From: an uncultured virus (IMG/VR IMGVR_UViG_2663763181_000001)
Lineage: Duplodnaviria > Heunggongvirae > Uroviricota > Caudoviricetes
IMG/VR virus record: IMGVR_UViG_2663763181_000001
Length of the DNA: 64,000 bases
Direction: 5' to 3' (one strand)
The position numbers and the translations under genes were made by a program. Shown here one piece after another: positions 7,341 to 54,967 of this stretch. The notes beneath the pieces were generated by a model. The model searched no databases. It was not told the DNA's origin and worked only from the letters and a program-made list of their open reading frames with translations. Numbering within the stretch: position 1 is the stretch's first letter; every line of letters starts with the position of its first letter.

Positions 7341-7381
7341 ATTTTTGCAAGTGTTGTTGTTCTAATTGGAGTAAGGTTCCA
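7341..7381 (-). promoter_or_regulatory. Late-promoter motif TGGAAC-N29-AAAAAT upstream of the lysis genes
   Basis: One of 16 intergenic copies with fixed spacing (see findings). Confidence 0.65.
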
Positions 7382-13500: not shown

Positions 13501-14347
13501 TTGCTCGTTTAAGAGATGATCTCTTACCAGATAGTTCACTGCTTCCGCTGCTGTTAATCCGGTTAGCACTGGTTCCACTATCTCCATTTGAAGATTCATT
13601 TCTAGGATTTCGGCCGCCAAGTAAACTTGCATCATCACTTTTTGGTAAGCCAGTATTACTGTCTCTGAGTACCCCAACTTCTCCATCATTTCTGACTGCT
13701 TCTGAAGCCTCAAGTTCATCTTTTCCTGATCCAGTTGTAGAAACAATTGGTCCTCTGGATCTGAGACGAAATTCGCCAACTGATTCCACATCTGAATTGG
13801 TATTTGATACATGTAAGAATAATCCTTTTACAAGTTGCTGATCTTCTGAAAGAAGAGAGTCTGGAATAGCTTTAAGATGTTTTGAGCGTACAAGAATTTC
13901 ACCCTGATAATAAAAGGCATAGGGGTCAAACTCTTTAGCTTTGGTTAATTTGATGCCTTTAAGACCAATAACCTGTAATGTTTTATTCTTTTTAGTGGTG
14001 TATGGCTTCAGCTCTTTATCGCAAGCAAAAAGACTGACAATAGTCTCTAGCTGTTCAATAACATTTCTGGAACTGTTATTAAGGTGTTGGATAACTGATT
14101 CATCAATGTTTTTGATAGCCTCGTTATATAAGACTTCAATAACTTCATCCAATTTTGGAAAGTCACTTTCTTGACGGGCAAAAGCTAAAGCTTGCTTTGC
14201 TACAGACAAGTTAAGTTCTATTTGCTTATGGATTATAAGAAGGAAAAATCGAGCAATATTGCTCTGATAATGCATGAAATCAATCATGTAATAAATCGCA
14301 ACCAATACTGTGTCTTTAGTGATTGGTTTGAGCTTTAAAATGGACAT
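10517..14347 (-). CDS. DarB-like polyvalent protein: SF2 helicase plus C-terminal N6-adenine DNA methyltransferase
   Basis: GTGTGKT, DEAH, SAT, QTEGRIYR helicase motifs; LEPSAGDG and NPPFG MTase motifs. Confidence 0.85.
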   Translation of the reverse strand: MSILKLKPITKDTVLVAIYYMIDFMHYQSNIARFFLLIIHKQIELNLSVAKQALAFARQESDFPKLDEVIEVLYNEAIKNIDESVIQHLNNSSRNVIEQLETIVSLFACDKELKPYTTKKNKTLQVIGLKGIKLTKAKEFDPYAFYYQGEILVRSKHLKAIPDSLLSEDQQLVKGLFLHVSNTNSDVESVGEFRLRSRGPIVSTTGSGKDELEASEAVRNDGEVGVLRDSNTGLPKSDDASLLGGRNPRNESSNGDSGTSANRINSSGSSELSGKRSSLKRARDRSIVQSAKSVRAAIDEKLEAQLKADNVETIWSDASNIDAALPYLQLAQRGDVLKTEKRLIEENKKGILFTNGTGTGKTFTGLGVAKRFINAGLKNILIVTLNDKIANDFVKSSSPLNIKAYKLKSIKDNGGNEHTVVVTTFANFGQNKSLVHKHWDLILIDEAHTLSQSSDGKATAALNKLRALTGHLHGFSEWFEDKFADQMPIEELDEDGKETEQYLSAYNKMQILRNEQRKIWNLNWKHQKSKVKVVFLSATPFSYHFSLDWAEGYLFDYMSPSVSVDDQGNLAEGFSKAREHFYMGNLGYRKRYGKLTRPEAKVDTGVLERQFAENLKNTGAMSGRDLEVNFDYDRKFILIGSRVGELIDEGLTYLRNGYKEIEGHKTRTFEEWAAQTGKPTTGWGRHASMQEYDRLFTGNRFKKIYEIIAKRFDYLARRRLLEAIKAEACVDMVKKHLALGRKVVIFHDYNEGGGFAPFLISKLDIEKYESPLREDIELEYNAFKENRPDLVNLNLDYDSPVETLKNAFPNALLFNGRLSKQQRETNVALFNTDDSGHDILILQSDAGSTGISLHDTTGKHQRVLINIGQPTKPAKLRQTEGRIYRTGQASNAIQRYLTTGTAWERAAFADTIAGRAETVDNFAKGADAVVSIKEALIQAYEEAKYEEPSLNDGIGGKAYDEENARIAKLTPFDQALTFYYAKGKRSESRNNREGKEWYATPEPLGFKMIEWAGVHTGDSVLEPSAGDGAIGRFVPQDVELTMIEPTESLASRAQMANTGAKVIVDTFESLESLNKYHAIVMNPPFGHAGTLAIQHIKKAFGHLYDGGRIVALVPRGSMDSKVDEFIESTPGAILTAEIWLPQSTFKNAGTAVSTRIIIIEKHAGSNDVPITRELDFTHLTSVEDLFSEIRDIAMPPRKLRIDEQLAKYQLYVRTERSKYVFNGDGVDKPQIKNIMLKFWGSEVNEFDEIVMPYNKSAEIIKKIDEFEQENNINLAA
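13453..13812 (-). CDS. Nested same-strand, alternative-frame gene inside the DarB-like gene (119 aa)
   Basis: AAGGA SD 10 nt before ATG; protein-like helical composition while the host frame is low-complexity. Confidence 0.55.
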   Translation of the reverse strand: MYQIPIQMWNQLANFVSDPEDQLFLQLDQEKMNLRLQKQSEMMEKLGYSETVILAYQKVMMQVYLAAEILEMNLQMEIVEPVLTGLTAAEAVNYLVRDHLLNEQEIDQLYNLLNQLELP

Positions 14348-42607: not shown

Positions 42608-44599
42608 CTAATCATTTTCTTTTTCAGCTGCTTCTCTTAAAGCACTGAATCTTGATTTACGTTCAGCTTGTTCACGGCCTTCCGGTGTATCGTCAGTGAC
42701 ATTTACAGTTTCGTAAGCTTCAGTGTAGTGAACGTTTTCTAAGAATAAGAAAGCAAAAGCATCACCAATATCCGGTGATTTAATTCCCATACGTTTCATT
42801 TCGTCTTTGCTCAAGATTTTATAACGAGCAAAGTCATCGAACCGGTATGGAACGTGGATTAATTGGTCTTTAATTTTAACATTGTGTTTCTTCGTTTTTA
42901 TTTTAAAACGTCCATTTGCGATTGCTCGAGCTAAGCCCACATAAGCTAATGAACGTTTATTCGTAAACTCTTTTCTATTGTCATTACTAAAACATTGTGA
43001 GCCCCAATAAACAGGAACGTAGAAAATACCTTGCTTTTTAAGATACTGGCCTAAACCTTTACCTGCCCCGTTGTCATCTACAACCAAGTTAGCATTTGGG
43101 TACTGTAAAAGTAGCTCATTAATCTTTGCAAATAGTTCTAAGATATCATCTCTGTTTTTGCATAATGGAATATCTACAACTTCTACACGGCGTGCACGCT
43201 CCCCCCATTGCGATTCGCCCCAAACTTTAGATACAACAATTACTGAATCGTCACGACCAACACCACCACCAACGTCAACCGTAATGACATAACCGAATTG
43301 ATGGTCATCAAAAATACTCGCGCCAACATACATTTCTTCTGTTTGACGTTTGGTAATTAAGAACTCATCCGATAAGTCTGGGAATTCACCTAGAACACGG
43401 ATCTTGTACTGAGCGTCTTCACGGCTTCCATACTTTTGCCGTTGTTCTTCTAAAGATTGCTTACTAACTAATGGTGACTCTTCCCCGTTAAATGTGAGAG
43501 CAATCCAAACACCACCAGCTCGATGACTTAACTTGTGATGAGTCTCATAGAACATACCCGCATTACGGGTAGGTTGCGACGTCATTACGGCACGGTTGTC
43601 TTCGTGAGTTAATGCACCAAACGCTACATCCAGTACAGCATCATCTACACCGCTGGCCTCATCGACCCAGACCATGTAGTTATCGCCGTGGTTACCAGCC
43701 AAGTTTGTAGGTTGATGTTTTGGTGCTGTCTTAGCAAAGACATACCATTTTTCTTTGTAGCCTTTAATGTAAACGAGTTCAGACTGGTACCCGACATAAT
43801 CAGCAAGCCAAGCCAAAGGCCCTTGCTTCAATCGTGCTAGATTGATACTGATTTCTTTCCAGACTTGTTTCTTTAACTGCCCGATCTGGGGGGCAGTAAA
43901 CATCATGATTGATTCATCAAAAAACAAGAGATGCCATAAGGCAACAATACCGGCACTGGCCGTTTTACCAGTGTTATGTAGTACTAAGTCATCTTCACCT
44001 AAGAAAAATGGATCTGGATCGAGTACAAAACCGTAATATTTACCTTCACCCAGCTCGGCAACGGATGTGATTTTTAAAGGCTCATGATCCCCATCAACAA
44101 GCCTATATGATGCAAACTGTTCTCTATTTTTTGGCTTTAGGTTCATGTATTGAGAAACAAGTAATTCAATCTTGTCGCCCTTTGACCAGCCGTTACCATC
44201 GTATAAAGAGATTAAGCAAAGGATATGCGATTTATTGAATGTATGAGCTTTGCCATTCTCATATTCAAACCGGTACATATCCTGATAACCAGTTACTGTT
44301 TTAATTACATCTAGTTCAGTCTTACCATCTGCAGCAAGGATCTTGTGATTTAGGTTAATGCGCTCAACTGGGATAAATTCCCCATTGGCTAATTTGATTA
44401 AAGTCCCTTTTCCAAAACAACCGTGACCTGAAGCTACGGATGTACGACTACCATCAAATGCAATAGATTCAAATAGTAATTCTTGTTGCCATGTGGGTTC
44501 GACACCTAATGCTTCTACGGCGAAAGCATAGATGTCGTATCGATAACGCTCACAAAGTTCCCACCATTCGGGAATTTCTTTTAATGGTGCCAAAGCCAT
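42608..44599 (-). CDS. Terminase large subunit (P1 PacB-like) containing a mini-intein
   Basis: Walker A SGHG|TGKT split by the intein; VDEASG Walker B; RVLGEFP, VDVGGG, SPDIGDA nuclease motifs. Confidence 0.92.
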   Translation of the reverse strand: MALAPLKEIPEWWELCERYRYDIYAFAVEALGVEPTWQQELLFESIAFDGSRTSVASGHGCFGKGTLIKLANGEFIPVERINLNHKILAADGKTELDVIKTVTGYQDMYRFEYENGKAHTFNKSHILCLISLYDGNGWSKGDKIELLVSQYMNLKPKNREQFASYRLVDGDHEPLKITSVAELGEGKYYGFVLDPDPFFLGEDDLVLHNTGKTASAGIVALWHLLFFDESIMMFTAPQIGQLKKQVWKEISINLARLKQGPLAWLADYVGYQSELVYIKGYKEKWYVFAKTAPKHQPTNLAGNHGDNYMVWVDEASGVDDAVLDVAFGALTHEDNRAVMTSQPTRNAGMFYETHHKLSHRAGGVWIALTFNGEESPLVSKQSLEEQRQKYGSREDAQYKIRVLGEFPDLSDEFLITKRQTEEMYVGASIFDDHQFGYVITVDVGGGVGRDDSVIVVSKVWGESQWGERARRVEVVDIPLCKNRDDILELFAKINELLLQYPNANLVVDDNGAGKGLGQYLKKQGIFYVPVYWGSQCFSNDNRKEFTNKRSLAYVGLARAIANGRFKIKTKKHNVKIKDQLIHVPYRFDDFARYKILSKDEMKRMGIKSPDIGDAFAFLFLENVHYTEAYETVNVTDDTPEGREQAERKSRFSALREAAEKEND
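43973..44419 (-). mobile_element. Mini-intein (149 aa, Cys61-Asn209, no homing endonuclease)
   Basis: CFGKGT start, block B TFNKSH, terminal VLHN followed by Thr. Confidence 0.9.
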
Positions 44600-49943: not shown

Positions 49944-50262
49944 ATGTCTCACCTGTTACTGATTTACCCAATCGGTCTGCTACTTGGTTAAGATCTATAT
50001 TCACATTCATGATGCTTAAATGAATATGAACCGTCTCAAATCCTTCGGTTTGTGAATACAGTGCTAGTTGGTCAGAGTTAAGCTCAGATAATATTGGTAG
50101 ATCCTTTTTCATCTTAATAAGAAAACTATCTGCCACCCTCGAGTCTAAAGGTGCCATTAGCAAATCATAAAGAGGTGCACCAAAGTCAGAACCATACTTC
50201 CCATTGACCGGATGATTAAGCCAGTACTCAACCATGTCTAAAATTGTTTTAGATGTGATCAT
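49924..50262 (-). CDS. Baseplate gp25/gpW-like protein
   Basis: WL..P.....GSDFG..L..LL motif; upstream of the J-like gene. Confidence 0.6.
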   Translation of the reverse strand: MITSKTILDMVEYWLNHPVNGKYGSDFGAPLYDLLMAPLDSRVADSFLIKMKKDLPILSELNSDQLALYSQTEGFETVHIHLSIMNVNIDLNQVADRLGKSVTGETYDINAS

Positions 50263-50618
50263 TAAGAAGTTGCTCTATTACTGAAAATCATCAAAAGCTT
50301 TACTAGTATTGCGGTGCCAATCTGATAAGTTGAAAAAATGGTGAAATAGATTATGAATATCCATAATGAAACGCTTAATGCATCAAAATATGAAGCAACG
50401 TTATAGATTCTCCAATCAACAAGAATAATAGTGATCAATACACATGCCATACTTATGAAATACATATATCTGATTTCTTTAAATAAGAGGCTTATAGGCA
50501 CATGACGGAATTGTTTAATATACGCAGCTTTATTCTTGCTATTCCATCCAGTAACAACGGAAAGATAAGCTAAAAATGCAAGAATTAAGACAATATCAAT
50601 ACCGATTTGAATTTGCAT
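50262..50618 (-). CDS. Membrane protein (3 TM) in the baseplate operon
   Basis: Start MQIQIG at 50618 after AGGGTG RBS and late motif; the longer 50792 start would run through the promoter/sRNA. Confidence 0.65.
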   Translation of the reverse strand: MQIQIGIDIVLILAFLAYLSVVTGWNSKNKAAYIKQFRHVPISLLFKEIRYMYFISMACVLITIILVDWRIYNVASYFDALSVSLWIFIIYFTIFSTYQIGTAILVKLLMIFSNRATS

Positions 50619-50691
50619 AAAAAACACCCTTAATAAGAACTGTATTAAGGGTATTGCTTTTGTATTTATGTAAGCGTGAATGGTTCCAGAT

Positions 50692-50720
50692 TTGAAAATA
50701 GGAAAAGCATGGATTATTAT
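50692..50720 (+). promoter_or_regulatory. Sigma70 promoter for the sRNA
   Basis: TTGAAA-N17-TATTAT; +1 expected near 50727. Confidence 0.65.
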
Positions 50721-50726
50721 ATATAC

Positions 50727-50818
50727 AAAGCCCGCTCCACTTATGACACGAGAACGTATAGGGTCATAAGTGTAGGTTAGAAGATGTCGCAACCCATCTC
50801 TAACTACCGGGCTTTTTT
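50727..50818 (+). ncRNA. Candidate ~90-nt structured small RNA (three-way junction)
   Basis: AAAGCCCG/CGGGCTTT closing stem, CACTTATGAC/GTCATAAGTG, GTTAG-AGATG/CATCT-CTAAC stems, terminal U-tract. Confidence 0.6.
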
Positions 50819-51758
50819 AATGCACTTCAAAAGCTGTAAGCAGCCATGCATTACTACCTTCTCGCTTAATCAATGACGCTTCATGCGAATTAAATACAAT
50901 ATTTATTCTTGTAGATAATCCACGTTCTGTACGCCGTTGTGTACTACCTTGAGCGATTGTTTGCACAATAGTATCCACAAGCATATGCACAACTTCATCA
51001 TATGTCATGCCATCACTTTCCATACGGCGCTTGATAATATGCTTAATACCCTGTTTTTCACTGCCATACTCAAAATCTACCCAGCCTAGATCATTACGAT
51101 ACATTGCTCTATGCACTGTGGTTTTTTCCATAATGGCTTTGTTCATTGCAGCTTTACCACGCGTGATATTTGCTGTAACTGATTTGATTGGACTCGCACT
51201 ATCAAATTCAGGCTTTCCCAGTTCGGATTGACCAGCCTCCGAACTTATACCCAGTTGTTGCTTAGCTTGTTCAATTTGTTCCTTCAGTTGGTCACGCTGA
51301 GCGGTTTGTTTTGCTAAATCTTCATCTAGCTTTTGTTCTTGTTCTTGTACTTCTTTAATTTTCTGATCTACAGAAGTACGGCGCGGCGGTAAGCTTACTT
51401 TTTCACGCTTATTTTGTTCTTGGATTTTAGATTGTGCTTCACGGATAAGTTTAGCAACACAACTTATGGCGTTTTCAAATGTTGGCTTATAGTCATCACT
51501 AAAATCGCCAGATAGAACAATTACTTTATCATTCAGTTCGGCCTTCACTACATCTGCTAAAGCACGAATATAAAGTGTGAGCGTAGCGCCACCTGAAAAG
51601 AAAAATGCTACTGGTAAAACGCTAACACCAGCAACGCGCTTAATTTTGCGAAATTCTGGTGTAACAATCGTTTGGCCTGTTGCTTTTTCTAATGCCGATT
51701 GGATCTTTTTAATGTATGGAGTAGTAGCTGTTATAGCTGCAAGATTAAGACTGCCCAT
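50817..51758 (-). CDS. Hdf/DarA-N-like protein fused to a C-terminal PBECR (barnase/EndoU/colicin/RelE-like) nuclease domain
   Basis: IKRVAGVSVLPV.F.F..G..L.L N-terminal domain, coiled coil, LG.VDF.YG...GIKHII.RR...WLLTAF. Confidence 0.65.
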   Translation of the reverse strand: MGSLNLAAITATTPYIKKIQSALEKATGQTIVTPEFRKIKRVAGVSVLPVAFFFSGGATLTLYIRALADVVKAELNDKVIVLSGDFSDDYKPTFENAISCVAKLIREAQSKIQEQNKREKVSLPPRRTSVDQKIKEVQEQEQKLDEDLAKQTAQRDQLKEQIEQAKQQLGISSEAGQSELGKPEFDSASPIKSVTANITRGKAAMNKAIMEKTTVHRAMYRNDLGWVDFEYGSEKQGIKHIIKRRMESDGMTYDEVVHMLVDTIVQTIAQGSTQRRTERGLSTRINIVFNSHEASLIKREGSNAWLLTAFEVH

Positions 51759-51911
51759 GAAAAATAACCTCATTAAAATGTGATTATTTTGCGATTAATC
51801 AAATTTATGAGGTCAATGAGGTTCCATAATAAACTTTAGTAAATTTAATTATTGAAAATATTTTAGAGATCTAAGAATATCTTTGATAAATTAAAAATTT
51901 GAGTAATATGC

Positions 51912-53633
51912 ATGCTACAAATATGTACAGGTAAATTATTTTCTAAAGATATTGAATATAGAAATAATTTGAAGGGAATTATTTATACAAATTTAAAATT
52001 ATTTCGAGATGAAAAAATTCAAACTAAAGCTGGCTCAATAGTTTACGCTGAGAATGCAAGTAGTCCAAATACAGTAATCTATGAAATAGAAGAACTAATT
52101 GAAGAAAGTGAACGTAAACCTGGCCTTCTTATTTCTCACGGTATCAATTCTTTAATATTAGATTTTTCAGCCATTCTTTCCTTTGCTCTAAATTGTACAG
52201 CTTCGCCAAGTCATTCATTAACAGAAAGATTACTTAGTGAGCAAGAAGGTGTTTCTACTCAAAGATCACCAAATAAAATGATTAAAACAGTTTTTGACAA
52301 AAATATTTTTTGTTCTGAAGAAAGCCAAAAGTTTTTTATCAACTTTACAAATCACTTAATTGGCCTTGAACGCAAAACTTATATAGGTGTAATGAGCTCT
52401 ATTCGTACCTATGTTACAGGTATGCATAGAATCGCAGATGACTATGAATTAGCATACACTCTACTTGTTGCATCTATTGAATCACTTGCACAAAATTTTG
52501 ATGGTCACCAATCAACTTGGGAGGACTATGATCAGAATAAAAAGAAGATAATTGATGAAGCTTTAAAGGGATGTGATGAAGATATTTCTGAAAAGGTTAG
52601 AGAGGCTATTTTAAGTATAGAACATACCTCTTTACGAAAAAGATTCCAAGCTTTTGCACTTGAACATGTTTCTCCCACTTTTTTTAGAGAGGAAGCGGAT
52701 TTTGCAATTAATCCTATCTCTAGATTAGATTTACCCACTGCTCTCAACAATGCATATCAAGCTAGATCTAAATATGTCCATAATTTAATAAAATTACCAA
52801 AACTATTAACCTTAGGTGAATATTCTGAATTTTGCATTATAAAAGAGAAAAGATGGTTAACCCTTCAAGGTTTATCAAGACTTGCAAGACATGTAATTAT
52901 TCAATTCGTTCTGAAGCAAGAGACTGTTGAAAATGAACCCTATGATTATTCATTAGAGCGATCAAATATTTTACAAGTACATTTAGCACCTCAACATTGG
53001 ATTGCTGCACCAGACTTTAGTGTAGGTGCGGGAGTTCAGAAATTGGAAGGGTTTCTTTCTCAACTAAGAGATTGTTTTACAAATGTTCCTAATGCAAGTG
53101 TAACTGACTTAACAAGCGTTTTAGATGAGTTGGAGTTAAAAATTGATACATTAAAACAGGATGATAAAAAAGCTTTTCTTGCCCTTTACATTCTATATTA
53201 CACCTATTTAAAAGACACATACAAAGATAATGAAAAACGAATAAAAAAAGTGGAAAGATTTATTAAGAAACATGAGAAGAAGTTTGCTAATCCTAGCGTA
53301 GAAGGACTTATTGTTAAAACTTTGCTAATTCTACCTTTTAAATGGAATATTGAAGAACACGAGAAATATTTAAAACAATATTTTAGTGACCGAGATAAAA
53401 AAAATAAAATAAGATGCCCAGATATTTTTGAATCAGGAATGATTCTTCAATTAGCCGAACGTTATAGAGAAGCTGGGAATGAAAAGAAAGTACTCGAACT
53501 AATTGACTTGGCAGTTGAAAACCTTCCCGCACATAAGATGTTACGCAACTTTGAAAAAGAATATAAAAAAAATTCACAACCTTTTGATAGCAAGGATATT
53601 TTATTTCCTCTGGAAGAAGACATAAAGGCATAA
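51912..53633 (+). CDS. Moron: ApeA-like HEPN protein, candidate anti-phage RNase
   Basis: LLVASIESLA...AYQARSKYVH (RxxxxH); opposite strand; AT-rich. Confidence 0.65.
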   Translation: MLQICTGKLFSKDIEYRNNLKGIIYTNLKLFRDEKIQTKAGSIVYAENASSPNTVIYEIEELIEESERKPGLLISHGINSLILDFSAILSFALNCTASPSHSLTERLLSEQEGVSTQRSPNKMIKTVFDKNIFCSEESQKFFINFTNHLIGLERKTYIGVMSSIRTYVTGMHRIADDYELAYTLLVASIESLAQNFDGHQSTWEDYDQNKKKIIDEALKGCDEDISEKVREAILSIEHTSLRKRFQAFALEHVSPTFFREEADFAINPISRLDLPTALNNAYQARSKYVHNLIKLPKLLTLGEYSEFCIIKEKRWLTLQGLSRLARHVIIQFVLKQETVENEPYDYSLERSNILQVHLAPQHWIAAPDFSVGAGVQKLEGFLSQLRDCFTNVPNASVTDLTSVLDELELKIDTLKQDDKKAFLALYILYYTYLKDTYKDNEKRIKKVERFIKKHEKKFANPSVEGLIVKTLLILPFKWNIEEHEKYLKQYFSDRDKKNKIRCPDIFESGMILQLAERYREAGNEKKVLELIDLAVENLPAHKMLRNFEKEYKKNSQPFDSKDILFPLEEDIKA

Positions 53634-53654
53634 TTTATTTATATTAATTTATGT

Positions 53655-53695
53655 ATATTAAAGTTCTCATGTTTTTATAATGAGAACTTTAATAT
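53655..53695. terminator. 16-bp perfect hairpin between convergent genes
   Basis: ATATTAAAGTTCTCAT-N9-ATGAGAACTTTAATAT. Confidence 0.7.
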
Positions 53696-53726
53696 TTTAT
53701 TTGGCAGTGCCATTATGAATGAAAAA

Positions 53727-54125
53727 TTATATACATCCAGGTTCGTTACCTGATCTGCACTCTTGCATTTCTTGTAATTCTTTAATTCGTGATTCCGTCT
53801 TTTCCACTAAACATGCATTAAGTACAAAAGGATATAAAGAACCCTTTAGCACTGGTGAGGATTGAAATTGACAATCTTTTTCTTTGTATTGAATCCAAGC
53901 TCTTTGAGCTTCTTTCAATTGAAGTTTCTCTGTTGGGTTAAGCTCTTTCATATAATTTGCATAAACAGAATTAATTTTCTGATTTGCAGAATTCAAAACA
54001 TTTGATGAGCAATTATTTAAAGCCGACTGATTTGGCAAATTTGAGCATTTATCTATACCAGCAAAAGTAACTGAACAAGTAATCGTGCTCATAATTAAAA
54101 AAGTAATTCTCATGAATTTATACAT
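53727..54125 (-). CDS. LprI/DUF1311 lysozyme-inhibitor family secreted protein
   Basis: Signal peptide; Q..LN.C, LKEAQRAWIQYKEKDC, C.......RIKEL. Confidence 0.85.
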   Translation of the reverse strand: MYKFMRITFLIMSTITCSVTFAGIDKCSNLPNQSALNNCSSNVLNSANQKINSVYANYMKELNPTEKLQLKEAQRAWIQYKEKDCQFQSSPVLKGSLYPFVLNACLVEKTESRIKELQEMQECRSGNEPGCI

Positions 54126-54145
54126 CTAATTGCTCCACTCTTAAT

Positions 54146-54967
54146 TTATTTATATCTATCTTTAGTACATGGCAGCCAATTCAAATCATTTCCTGCAGCC
54201 TTCTCGTTTTCTGAGCCCCAACACCATCCGCCATTTTTAATATCGACATATAAAGTATCTCTTTCTTCACAACTTTCAATAGTTTTCGGGTCATCACCCG
54301 AACCACCACGGCATGAATCATTGAGCTTTTCATATTGGAGAATTTTGTCTTGAATGATTTTAGGAATTTCAGAAGATTGTTTTTTTAAATAATCGTTAAT
54401 ACCTTGTATTGATAGTTCGCCAGCTTGATAAAAATGAACATATATAATTGGTAACTCTTCAATTTGGTTAGTTGTTGGGTTTGTATAAGTAAAAACGTCT
54501 GACGGCGCAACAGTGCCCTTAAATGCAATTATGTCGCCTTCTATAACCCTTGCTTGTACATTTGGATCAAAAACTAAAACAACTAAATTACCATCAAAAT
54601 TAGCTTTATTTGCCAGTACCCCATATAAACCAGCTTTTTGATTTATTAATGGCCTTGAGGATGCCAAAGCCAAAGTATGATTATCAACCTTCTGAATTGA
54701 TTCGATACTCGCTGCACCTATTAATTTTGTACCTACATCATAATCATGAAATCTAATTCCTCTATAGGTTTTGTCGTCATTTATTAAAATACTTTGATTC
54801 AAAAAATCAGATTCATTTAAAGATGTAAAATCGTAAGTTGCTTCCGCTTTAACGGGTTCTTGCATTGCTGAGTTAGATCCTTCAGCTGGTTGCTCATTAT
54901 TTTTATTACAACCAGCTAATGCAAGCATAGTAATTAATACCGTTAAATTTAAAGCTCTAAGAGTCAT
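54146..54967 (-). CDS. Lipoprotein of unknown function
   Basis: Lipobox LAGC; C-terminal CRGGSGD...C..RD...GWCWG motif. Confidence 0.75.
   Translation of the reverse strand: MTLRALNLTVLITMLALAGCNKNNEQPAEGSNSAMQEPVKAEATYDFTSLNESDFLNQSILINDDKTYRGIRFHDYDVGTKLIGAASIESIQKVDNHTLALASSRPLINQKAGLYGVLANKANFDGNLVVLVFDPNVQARVIEGDIIAFKGTVAPSDVFTYTNPTTNQIEELPIIYVHFYQAGELSIQGINDYLKKQSSEIPKIIQDKILQYEKLNDSCRGGSGDDPKTIESCEERDTLYVDIKNGGWCWGSENEKAAGNDLNWLPCTKDRYK

Follow-up and report, generated by a model that had tools for sequence, protein, structure and literature searches.

Genes and features of the locus

The window analysed here, a stretch of 64,000 nucleotides, represents most of a 79-kb virus record (IMG/VR IMGVR_UViG_2663763181_000001) and carries a minus-strand gene at 50817-51773 encoding a 318-amino-acid protein in which an Hdf/DarA-N carrier (Hdf-like, PHROG 1620, E = 8e-31) is fused to a swappable C-terminal tip. 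In this virus the tip is a PBECR1 domain of 127 amino acids (50820-51200, minus strand; PF18809, E = 6e-12, 46.4 bits against a cut-off of 27.6), and the residues by which PBECR1 is defined are present, namely His245 (codon 51039-51041) within a helix and Thr/Ser in the C-terminal LTAF strand. The accessible text of PMC5512222 lists a catalytic histidine, a C-terminal Thr/Ser and a virion context as PBECR features and proposes mRNA or CRISPR RNA as targets; the GxxH motif holding the histidine named there as catalytic occurs in 53 of 55 domains. PBECR1 is a putative BECR-fold domain, and a structure model of it (pLDDT 91.5) was compared with solved structures. Its best fold match, at a Z below 8, was a CDI toxin (Z 6.1, rmsd 4.3, 94 aligned), followed by further CDI toxins (Z 5.6 and 5.4) and then by a TA toxin, colicin D and RelE at modest Z of 5-6. 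Foldseek returned the same CDI toxin chain as its best match (E = 4.7e-3), and a sequence search of solved structures gave nothing. The colicin D structure entry describes a tRNase, and several of the other fold-matched toxins are tRNases as well.

The virus record is close to the temperate Acinetobacter phage ABMM1 (PMC10345192), which matches the window at 97% across the RNA element described below. Packaging of the Hdf-PBECR1 protein is not mentioned in the accessible part of the ABMM1 paper. The Hdf of P1 resides inside the head and leaves it along with the DNA: 55 DarA-Hdf pairs line the head interior and are gone after DNA ejection (PMC12810830, as far as its accessible text goes); by analogy, we infer that the Hdf-PBECR1 fusion may be packaged in the virion and delivered. 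Upstream of the Hdf gene lies a variable slot (51912-54967), occupied by an LprI gene, a lipoprotein-like ORF and a plus-strand ORF of 573 amino acids that neither Pfam nor PHROG profiles match; in ABMM1 the slot contains antirepressor and HicB-type genes. Elsewhere, a large terminase-like ORF (42608-44599) contains what looks, judged by its motif, like an insertion of the intein type.

Directly behind the nuclease gene and convergent with it, the plus strand encodes a predicted three-way-junction RNA of about 92 nucleotides, reaching from the first base of its closing stem P1 to a U run (50727-50818). It is preceded by a sigma70-type promoter motif (50692-50720) with the -35 hexamer TTGAAA at 50692-50697, a 17-nucleotide spacer and the -10 hexamer TATTAT at 50715-50720. 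The 5' strand of P1 (50727-50734) pairs with 50808-50815 and leads into the junction segment GCUCC (50734-50738), which is followed by P2 with its loop L2 (50738-50772), in the window a perfect 10-bp stem (50738-50747/50763-50772), the junction segment GUAG (50772-50775) and P3 (50776-50804; stem 50776-50786/50795-50804), whose 8-nucleotide loop L3 reads TCGCAACC. The 3' strand of P1 and the U run (50808-50818) form a likely terminator that overlaps the end of the nuclease gene, since the T run at 50813-50818 reaches into the minus-strand stop codon at 50817-50819; in relatives this run comprises 6-8 T. The promoter, closing stem, both hairpins, loop and U-tract of the original prediction all agree base for base with these positions. 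An ACG-AGAA-CGT sub-hairpin that it had placed within P2 appears neither in the centroid structure nor in the family consensus.

Taken by itself, the promoter motif in the window is no proof of a promoter: it is the best of ten promoter-like sites in 3 kb, with 10 of 12 matches, and shuffled sequences contain 12.0 such sites by chance. Its hexamers are, in turn, invariant in 17 close relatives of the locus, in which the spacer varies. The 99 nucleotides at 50727-50825 fold into a three-way junction at -33.9 kcal/mol (z = -4.64), a value equalled by 0 of 200 shuffles; as the minus strand of the same segment folds comparably (z = -4.33), folding alone does not give the strand. A comparison with Rfam yielded no match at gathering thresholds in the window, none over the element at E<=10 and none in 20 related loci. 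No second copy was found elsewhere in the phage. Among 24 RNA-seq runs listed for the stretch, 20 contain it as contigs; six contig runs that were inspected carry no information on strand, transcript ends or level, and the prophage was absent from two raw-read runs. A 176-196-amino-acid ORF annotated across the element was rejected as the product of an over-long start, because relatives lacking the RNA also start at ATG 50618 and because the length of the T run varies.

Below the element, TGGAACC (50682-50688, minus strand) is not part of the RNA but marks the border of the swappable tip cassette and is shared with loci carrying other tips. Its plus-strand form GGTTCCA, at 7375, 14413, 20213, 33229, 38650, 50682 and 51820, lies 47-73 nucleotides before seven minus-strand ORF starts and also occurs at 13571 and 58510, making TGGAACC a candidate late-promoter element. 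A 13-bp hairpin at 50623-50655, just before a downstream gene for a 118-amino-acid membrane-type protein (50262-50618, minus strand), covers the likely ribosome site, and its inner part is inverted in three related loci (L001, L014 and L065).

A covarying RNA family behind PBECR1 domains

Homologues were collected by profile scans (80 viral and 80 metagenome loci), a PF18809 scan of 400 genomes (3 matches), a 16-mer scan and a scan for the motif alone. Among the 68 loci of the 16-mer scan, five non-Acinetobacter ones were examined, of which one (L297) was real and four were chance matches. The motif-only scan of viral contigs gave at least 120 loci, and among the loci listed the whole element was apparent by eye only in the Acinetobacter copies and in L264, the rest being chance. 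A homologue obtained by motif scanning lies behind a PBECR1 domain (52%); its stems have changed and its L2 loop has not. At a Competibacter locus whose domain is 42% identical, a clear RNA homologue directly follows the domain within the reading frame.

We aligned 34 first copies, picked by a GGAGC anchor, with MAFFT and without fitting to a structure; near-duplicates, one copy with an insertion and nine loci lacking the anchor were left out. The consensus of the family is a three-way junction in which 23 of 25 pairs show two-sided changes (6 of 7 in P1). Paired cells amounted to 85%, compared to 55% after column shuffling and 35-47% with slid partners. Since these 34 copies also trained the covariance search model (R1) and relatedness among the loci is widespread, counts and p-values make the cases look more independent than they are.

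Applied to 98 loci (319 kb), R1 returned 62 matches, every one downstream and antisense, and each located directly behind PBECR1 or forming a tandem second unit. It likewise matched 11 of 11 loci fetched after model building, some of them close to training loci. An antisense match lay between -20 and +60 nucleotides from the domain end for 55 of 59 distinct complete PBECR1 domains. Three further domains showed the second unit only (overlapping matches were dropped; the first units were found by the GGAGC anchor), and L272 was the sole domain among the 59 without any R1 match. The spacing between RNA and domain end was -6 to +11 nucleotides in 53 of the 55 cases, and RNA homologues adjoin PBECR1 domains down to 30% identity. 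In 46 of 55 copies the protein frame runs on without a stop for over 35 codons, placing the RNA gene within a protein linker. Most of these embedded copies have no clear U run that would account for their 3' end, and any read-through would be antisense to the nuclease mRNA.

Two kinds of evidence bear on the strand. Within paired columns, G-U outnumbered A-C by 65 to 30 in the unfitted and by 106 to 29 in a fitted alignment, favouring the strand opposite the nuclease gene. In the sequence preceding the outermost copy, the best -10 box fitted TAnnnT at 27 of 43 loci, against 57 of 672 control positions. It mostly lay 7 nucleotides before P1, and a TTGACA-like -35 at 17 nucleotides was common, even inside ORFs. 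The -35/-10 pair averaged 7.4 bits versus 1.2 bits in controls. Five of the loci whose best box departs from TAnnnT apparently, judged by eye, have a further degenerate unit upstream. By this geometry, transcription would set in with the first base of P1. What lies antisense directly behind PBECR1 is a conserved motif, a three-way-junction RNA equipped with a sigma70 promoter motif.

Across 62 distinct copies, the stems vary, while the junction bases (GC-CC, GUAG and CA) are 90-100% fixed, as are the loop bases CG, AG and C. Within GCUCC the individual bases are conserved at 97% (G), 97% (C), 79% (U), 90% (C) and 100% (C), and GUAG is 97-100% conserved; L2 retains CG...AG, and L3 is variable except for conserved C's. 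Variable stems combined with fixed junctions are as expected for recognition by a protein. Contact between L2 and L3 is tentative: three candidate column pairs (41-71, 38-73 and 31-77) show 9-11 two-sided changes each, mostly from one subtype, and a kissing-run test on the family gave no excess (139 of 300 shuffles scored at least as high). The RNA subtypes are spread over the protein tree, and the close proteins L441 and L594 carry different ones, which argues against strict one-to-one specificity between RNA and protein.

The RNA is exchanged together with the PBECR1 tip

Comparison of 75 viral loci that carry a gene related to the Hdf gene revealed that the RNA segregates with the PBECR1 tip. 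A complete PBECR1 tip was present at 63 loci, all 63 with the RNA element, whereas none of the nine loci with other tips had it. The remaining three loci (L059, L061 and L063) carry an interrupted PBECR1 tip and gave no RNA match. The other tips are ART-like at six loci (L066, L069, L071, L072, L073 and L075), two of them broken, and PRTase-like at three (L067, L070 and L076), labels that are based on motifs; Pfam gave no match for either type. At least three exchangeable tip types thus occur on one Hdf carrier in ABMM1-like prophages. This looks like an Hdf-based polymorphic effector locus, seemingly undescribed, with the constant carrier and exchangeable C-terminal tips of a polymorphic cassette. 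An immunity ORF directly downstream of the PBECR1 tip is absent and the RNA occupies this slot, which is filled by a 74-amino-acid ORF with the ART-like tip.

Similarity among the tip types resumes at the TGGAAC motif, which puts both the promoter and the RNA within the cassette that is swapped. The downstream genes for proteins of 118 and 112 amino acids occur with every tip type, and the 118-amino-acid membrane gene was rejected as a partner of the RNA since it also accompanies the tips at RNA-less loci. On the strand corresponding to the RNA, four ART-like or PRTase-like loci form simple hairpins only (z of -1.0 to -2.4 versus -4.3), and promoter scores there are weaker in other-tip than in PBECR1 cassettes. 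Together, covariation, strand bias, fixed promoter position, co-segregation and adjacency in 55 of 59 domains support the initial proposal of a plus-strand structured RNA tied to PBECR.

Tandem units, orphan copies and distant clades

Several loci carry a second RNA unit in tandem, and in 8 of 8 pairs this unit is closer to the first unit of another locus than to its neighbour, with 98% and 100% identity to first units elsewhere in two cases. Scans starting from the RNA, performed on three draws of 151 genomes, matched seven genomes, two of which were model sources. PBECR1 was adjacent in three of the five new genomes, and the other two had no PBECR1 match. One of these orphans (G440:C18:12150-21500, L672) resides in a satellite-like element of about 9 kb with an integrase and a DUF3987 primase, where it follows a TATACT box and a further stem-closed structure that differs from it in type. 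At the other (G750:C53:24964-25061, L674), the last ~20 codons of PBECR1 remain; this copy adjoins an apparent RelE-type toxin and HTH pair. Both belong to one subtype that is also met as a tandem second unit. We read the retention of orphans as cross-immunity, although both may be leftovers of decay, and the genomes are incomplete. Unlike units in tandem and orphan copies are signs of a possible action in trans.

Model R1 did not match the distant PBECR1 clades (portal-fused, solo and Helicobacter-type). At 44 distinct distant loci, however, the best promoter score behind the domain averaged 12.0 on the antisense strand and 8.5 on the other. Many of the sequences that follow are predicted to form three-way junctions with a terminator, as many as three of them in a row. 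In one distant subtype, 4-nucleotide complementarity between two loops was found in 17 of 17 units (what remained of 20 extracted once an unrelated match and two units bearing insertions had been dropped), compared to 3.49 with shuffled partners (6 of 2000). The arrangement is thus a property of the PBECR1 family, shared by RNAs that may be unrelated by descent.

Solo and portal-fused PBECR1 genes are accompanied by a second RNA family (L472, L473, L474, L476, L480, L485, L486, L487, L492, L504, L508 and L534), a three-way junction with covarying 4-nucleotide loop-loop pairing, arrays of up to three units, a strong promoter and terminator, and no Rfam match among those tested. Unlike convergent structured RNAs were noted in other PBECR1 clades (L543, L545, L555, L562 and L580; L479, L482 and L517; L494 and L518), and the Helicobacter-type loci include two promoter-RNA units.

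A probable RNA antitoxin

The anatomy of the locus favours an antitoxin or decoy among the three roles originally proposed for the RNA, namely antitoxin, decoy and guide. At a probability that we put at about 0.6, the RNA is a type III-like antitoxin for a predicted virion-delivered, colicin D/CDI-like RNase. In lysogens, and from phage DNA on its entry, host RNA polymerase would transcribe it constitutively. As in P1, the Hdf carrier would travel inside the head and leave it together with the DNA, with the PBECR1 tip as an active RNase that the RNA binds and blocks. The surface that the protein recognises could consist of the invariant bases of the junction and a possible contact between the loops, perhaps mimicking a tRNA-like substrate. 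Such an RNA would shield a cell in which virions are being assembled and guard the lysogen against sibling particles; it would help a newly infected cell only where the phage DNA lasts long enough to be transcribed. The RNA would take the slot held by an immunity ORF in polymorphic toxin cassettes, and its antisense coding would allow it to sit within the linker of a multidomain protein. An antitoxin fits best because of the fixed geometry and junctions, the host-type promoter, the immunity slot, the stacked foreign copies and the orphans.

The RNA is perfectly complementary to the nuclease mRNA by position, as any antisense element would be, its promoter converges on the nuclease gene, and the missing U run of most embedded copies implies that transcription would cross the coding sequence of the domain. 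It might therefore act in cis in a type I-like manner, with the RNA or its read-through product pairing with the mRNA and triggering decay to curb leaky toxin in lysogens; the convergent 3' antitoxins of Bacillus prophages act in this way on their toxin mRNAs. Pairing in cis, however, requires neither invariant junctions nor fixed geometry, hardly explains tandem unlike copies and orphans, and gives no protection from an injected protein, and an mRNA cut just behind the domain would leave the domain intact. The linked protein is, moreover, a 127-amino-acid nuclease domain instead of the small, usually hydrophobic toxin of type I systems, and we regard this reading as unlikely. The same linkage and conservation data would also accommodate an activating subunit or guide that is loaded on PBECR1 and sets or licenses its target, be it a host tRNA, an mRNA or a defence RNA; the part that changes would be L3 or the 3' read-through. 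The variable L3 loop, the occurrence of several RNA subtypes within a clade of proteins and the path from AbiF/AbiFr to Cas13 (PMC12737573, accessible text) would suit such a role, which is nevertheless a little less likely still: no segment resembles a spacer, unit length is fixed with an L3 of 7-8 nucleotides, loop targets in the phage genome are not above chance, orphans occur without a nuclease, and a host-type promoter supplies the RNA mainly where inhibition is needed. A bolder combination, in which interchangeable RNA subtypes, hidden antisense in genes for virion proteins, retune a programmable or switchable PBECR1-RNA nuclease that is injected or assembled on entry, and in which phages and satellites hoard arrays of RNAs against the injected RNases of rivals, appears about as doubtful as pairing in cis; if true, a second RNase fold, after HEPN/Cas13, would have been domesticated by a small RNA.

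Still lower odds attach to the remaining readings. A three-way junction with invariant core bases in the style of small ribozymes, together with the persistence of orphans, might point to an RNA with an activity of its own, either a self-cleaving ribozyme or a decoy for host defence that shares an anti-defence task with PBECR1. Rfam ribozymes did not match, a start at the first base of P1 leaves nothing to trim, and the nearly constant spacing of -6 to +11 nucleotides to the domain end in 53 of 55 cases speaks against this reading, rendering it improbable. That the structure instead works in the coding-strand mRNA, where it would signal termination, processing or recoding just after the domain, would agree with the equally stable minus-strand fold (z = -4.33) and, in the window, with its location after the stop codon, but conflicts with the excess of G-U over A-C, the antisense promoter and the 46 of 55 copies inside open frames. 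We consider it very improbable, including in the form of a mere minus-strand terminator that had been named as the counter-case to the original prediction. Finally, a temperate phage that combines head genes of P1 type with a small folded RNA invites comparison with C4 of P1 and P7, a small folded antisense RNA of temperate phages, and a C4-like trans-acting regulator of an antirepressor operon had been among the first suggestions. This idea has next to nothing left in its favour: Rfam C4 models were unmatched, paired loop-target sites numbered 31, 1 and 0 for 6-, 7- and 8-mers versus 62, 3.2 and 0.13 in shuffles, pairing of the element to the start regions of the three nearby genes (Hdf, 118 and 112 amino acids) was not above chance, and the RNA is linked to PBECR1 rather than to icd/ant.

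Should the RNA be an antitoxin for PBECR1, the BECR fold and virion-delivered polymorphic toxins would join the targets of protein-binding RNA antitoxins, which are described for ToxN-type and HEPN nucleases in the accessible texts of PMC12283969 and PMC12737573. A nuclease domain in a giant multidomain protein could then carry its own immunity without a separate gene. The question of PBECR function raised in PMC5512222 (accessible text) would become directly testable in a laboratory strain with a 127-amino-acid domain and a 92-nucleotide RNA. The locus also exemplifies a structured RNA gene with a promoter conserved in protein linkers, outside the view of intergenic motif screens.

Comparison with known systems

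In the main texts of mostly open-access papers, PMC5512222 and bioRxiv 10.64898/2026.08.28.747851 among them, our literature search found nothing linking an RNA to PBECR. The motif could stand unnamed in supplementary lists of candidate RNAs (PMC5737381, phage RNA screens or A. baumannii sRNA surveys). The PBECR polyvalent proteins of PMC5512222 share the PF18809 domain, the histidine with the C-terminal Thr/Ser and the virion context with the protein described here, but no associated RNA is named there, and the main text uses neither 'ncRNA' nor 'small RNA'. The DUF3800, drum and skipping-rope motifs (PMC5737381, accessible text) are alike in that unlike RNAs accompany one protein domain in either orientation and with terminators; they differ in the domain, have no Rfam match to the PBECR1 RNAs and are unreported inside ORFs. 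P1/P7 C4 differs in that the PBECR1 RNA has neither an Rfam match nor loop targets.

Two further systems resemble the locus in part, as far as their accessible descriptions go. MuF toxins of temperate phages (PMC5576092) have a head-protein carrier, a variable C-terminal tip, proposed delivery with DNA and a downstream partner; this partner is a small immunity ORF, whereas the PBECR1 tip has an RNA, and the PBECR1 carriers are Hdf/DarA-N, portal or polyvalent proteins. In AbiF/AbiFr (PMC12737573), a single cis-encoded structured RNA binds an RNase via unpaired bases and inhibits it, but the RNase is a stand-alone defence protein of the HEPN fold, and the PBECR1 RNA is without an Rfam match.

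The closest predicted functional parallel is type III toxin-antitoxin systems. In ToxIN, CptIN and TenpIN the RNA is encoded upstream on the same strand within one operon of promoter, repeats, terminator and toxin (PMC12283969, accessible text), and the likeness to the PBECR1 locus lies in an endoribonuclease with a structured RNA, tandem unlike units and occurrence in phages. The RNA of these systems is an upstream, same-strand H-type pseudoknot with a ToxN-type partner. That of PBECR1 is a downstream, antisense three-way junction with its own promoter, often located inside the ORF, and its partner is the BECR-fold domain of a virion protein. No ToxN/CptN/TenpN-family toxin was detected at the window locus, where Pfam identified PBECR1 only and PHROGs Hdf and unknown families. 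The PBECR1 RNA is predicted to work like a type III antitoxin while departing from each of these family-defining features.
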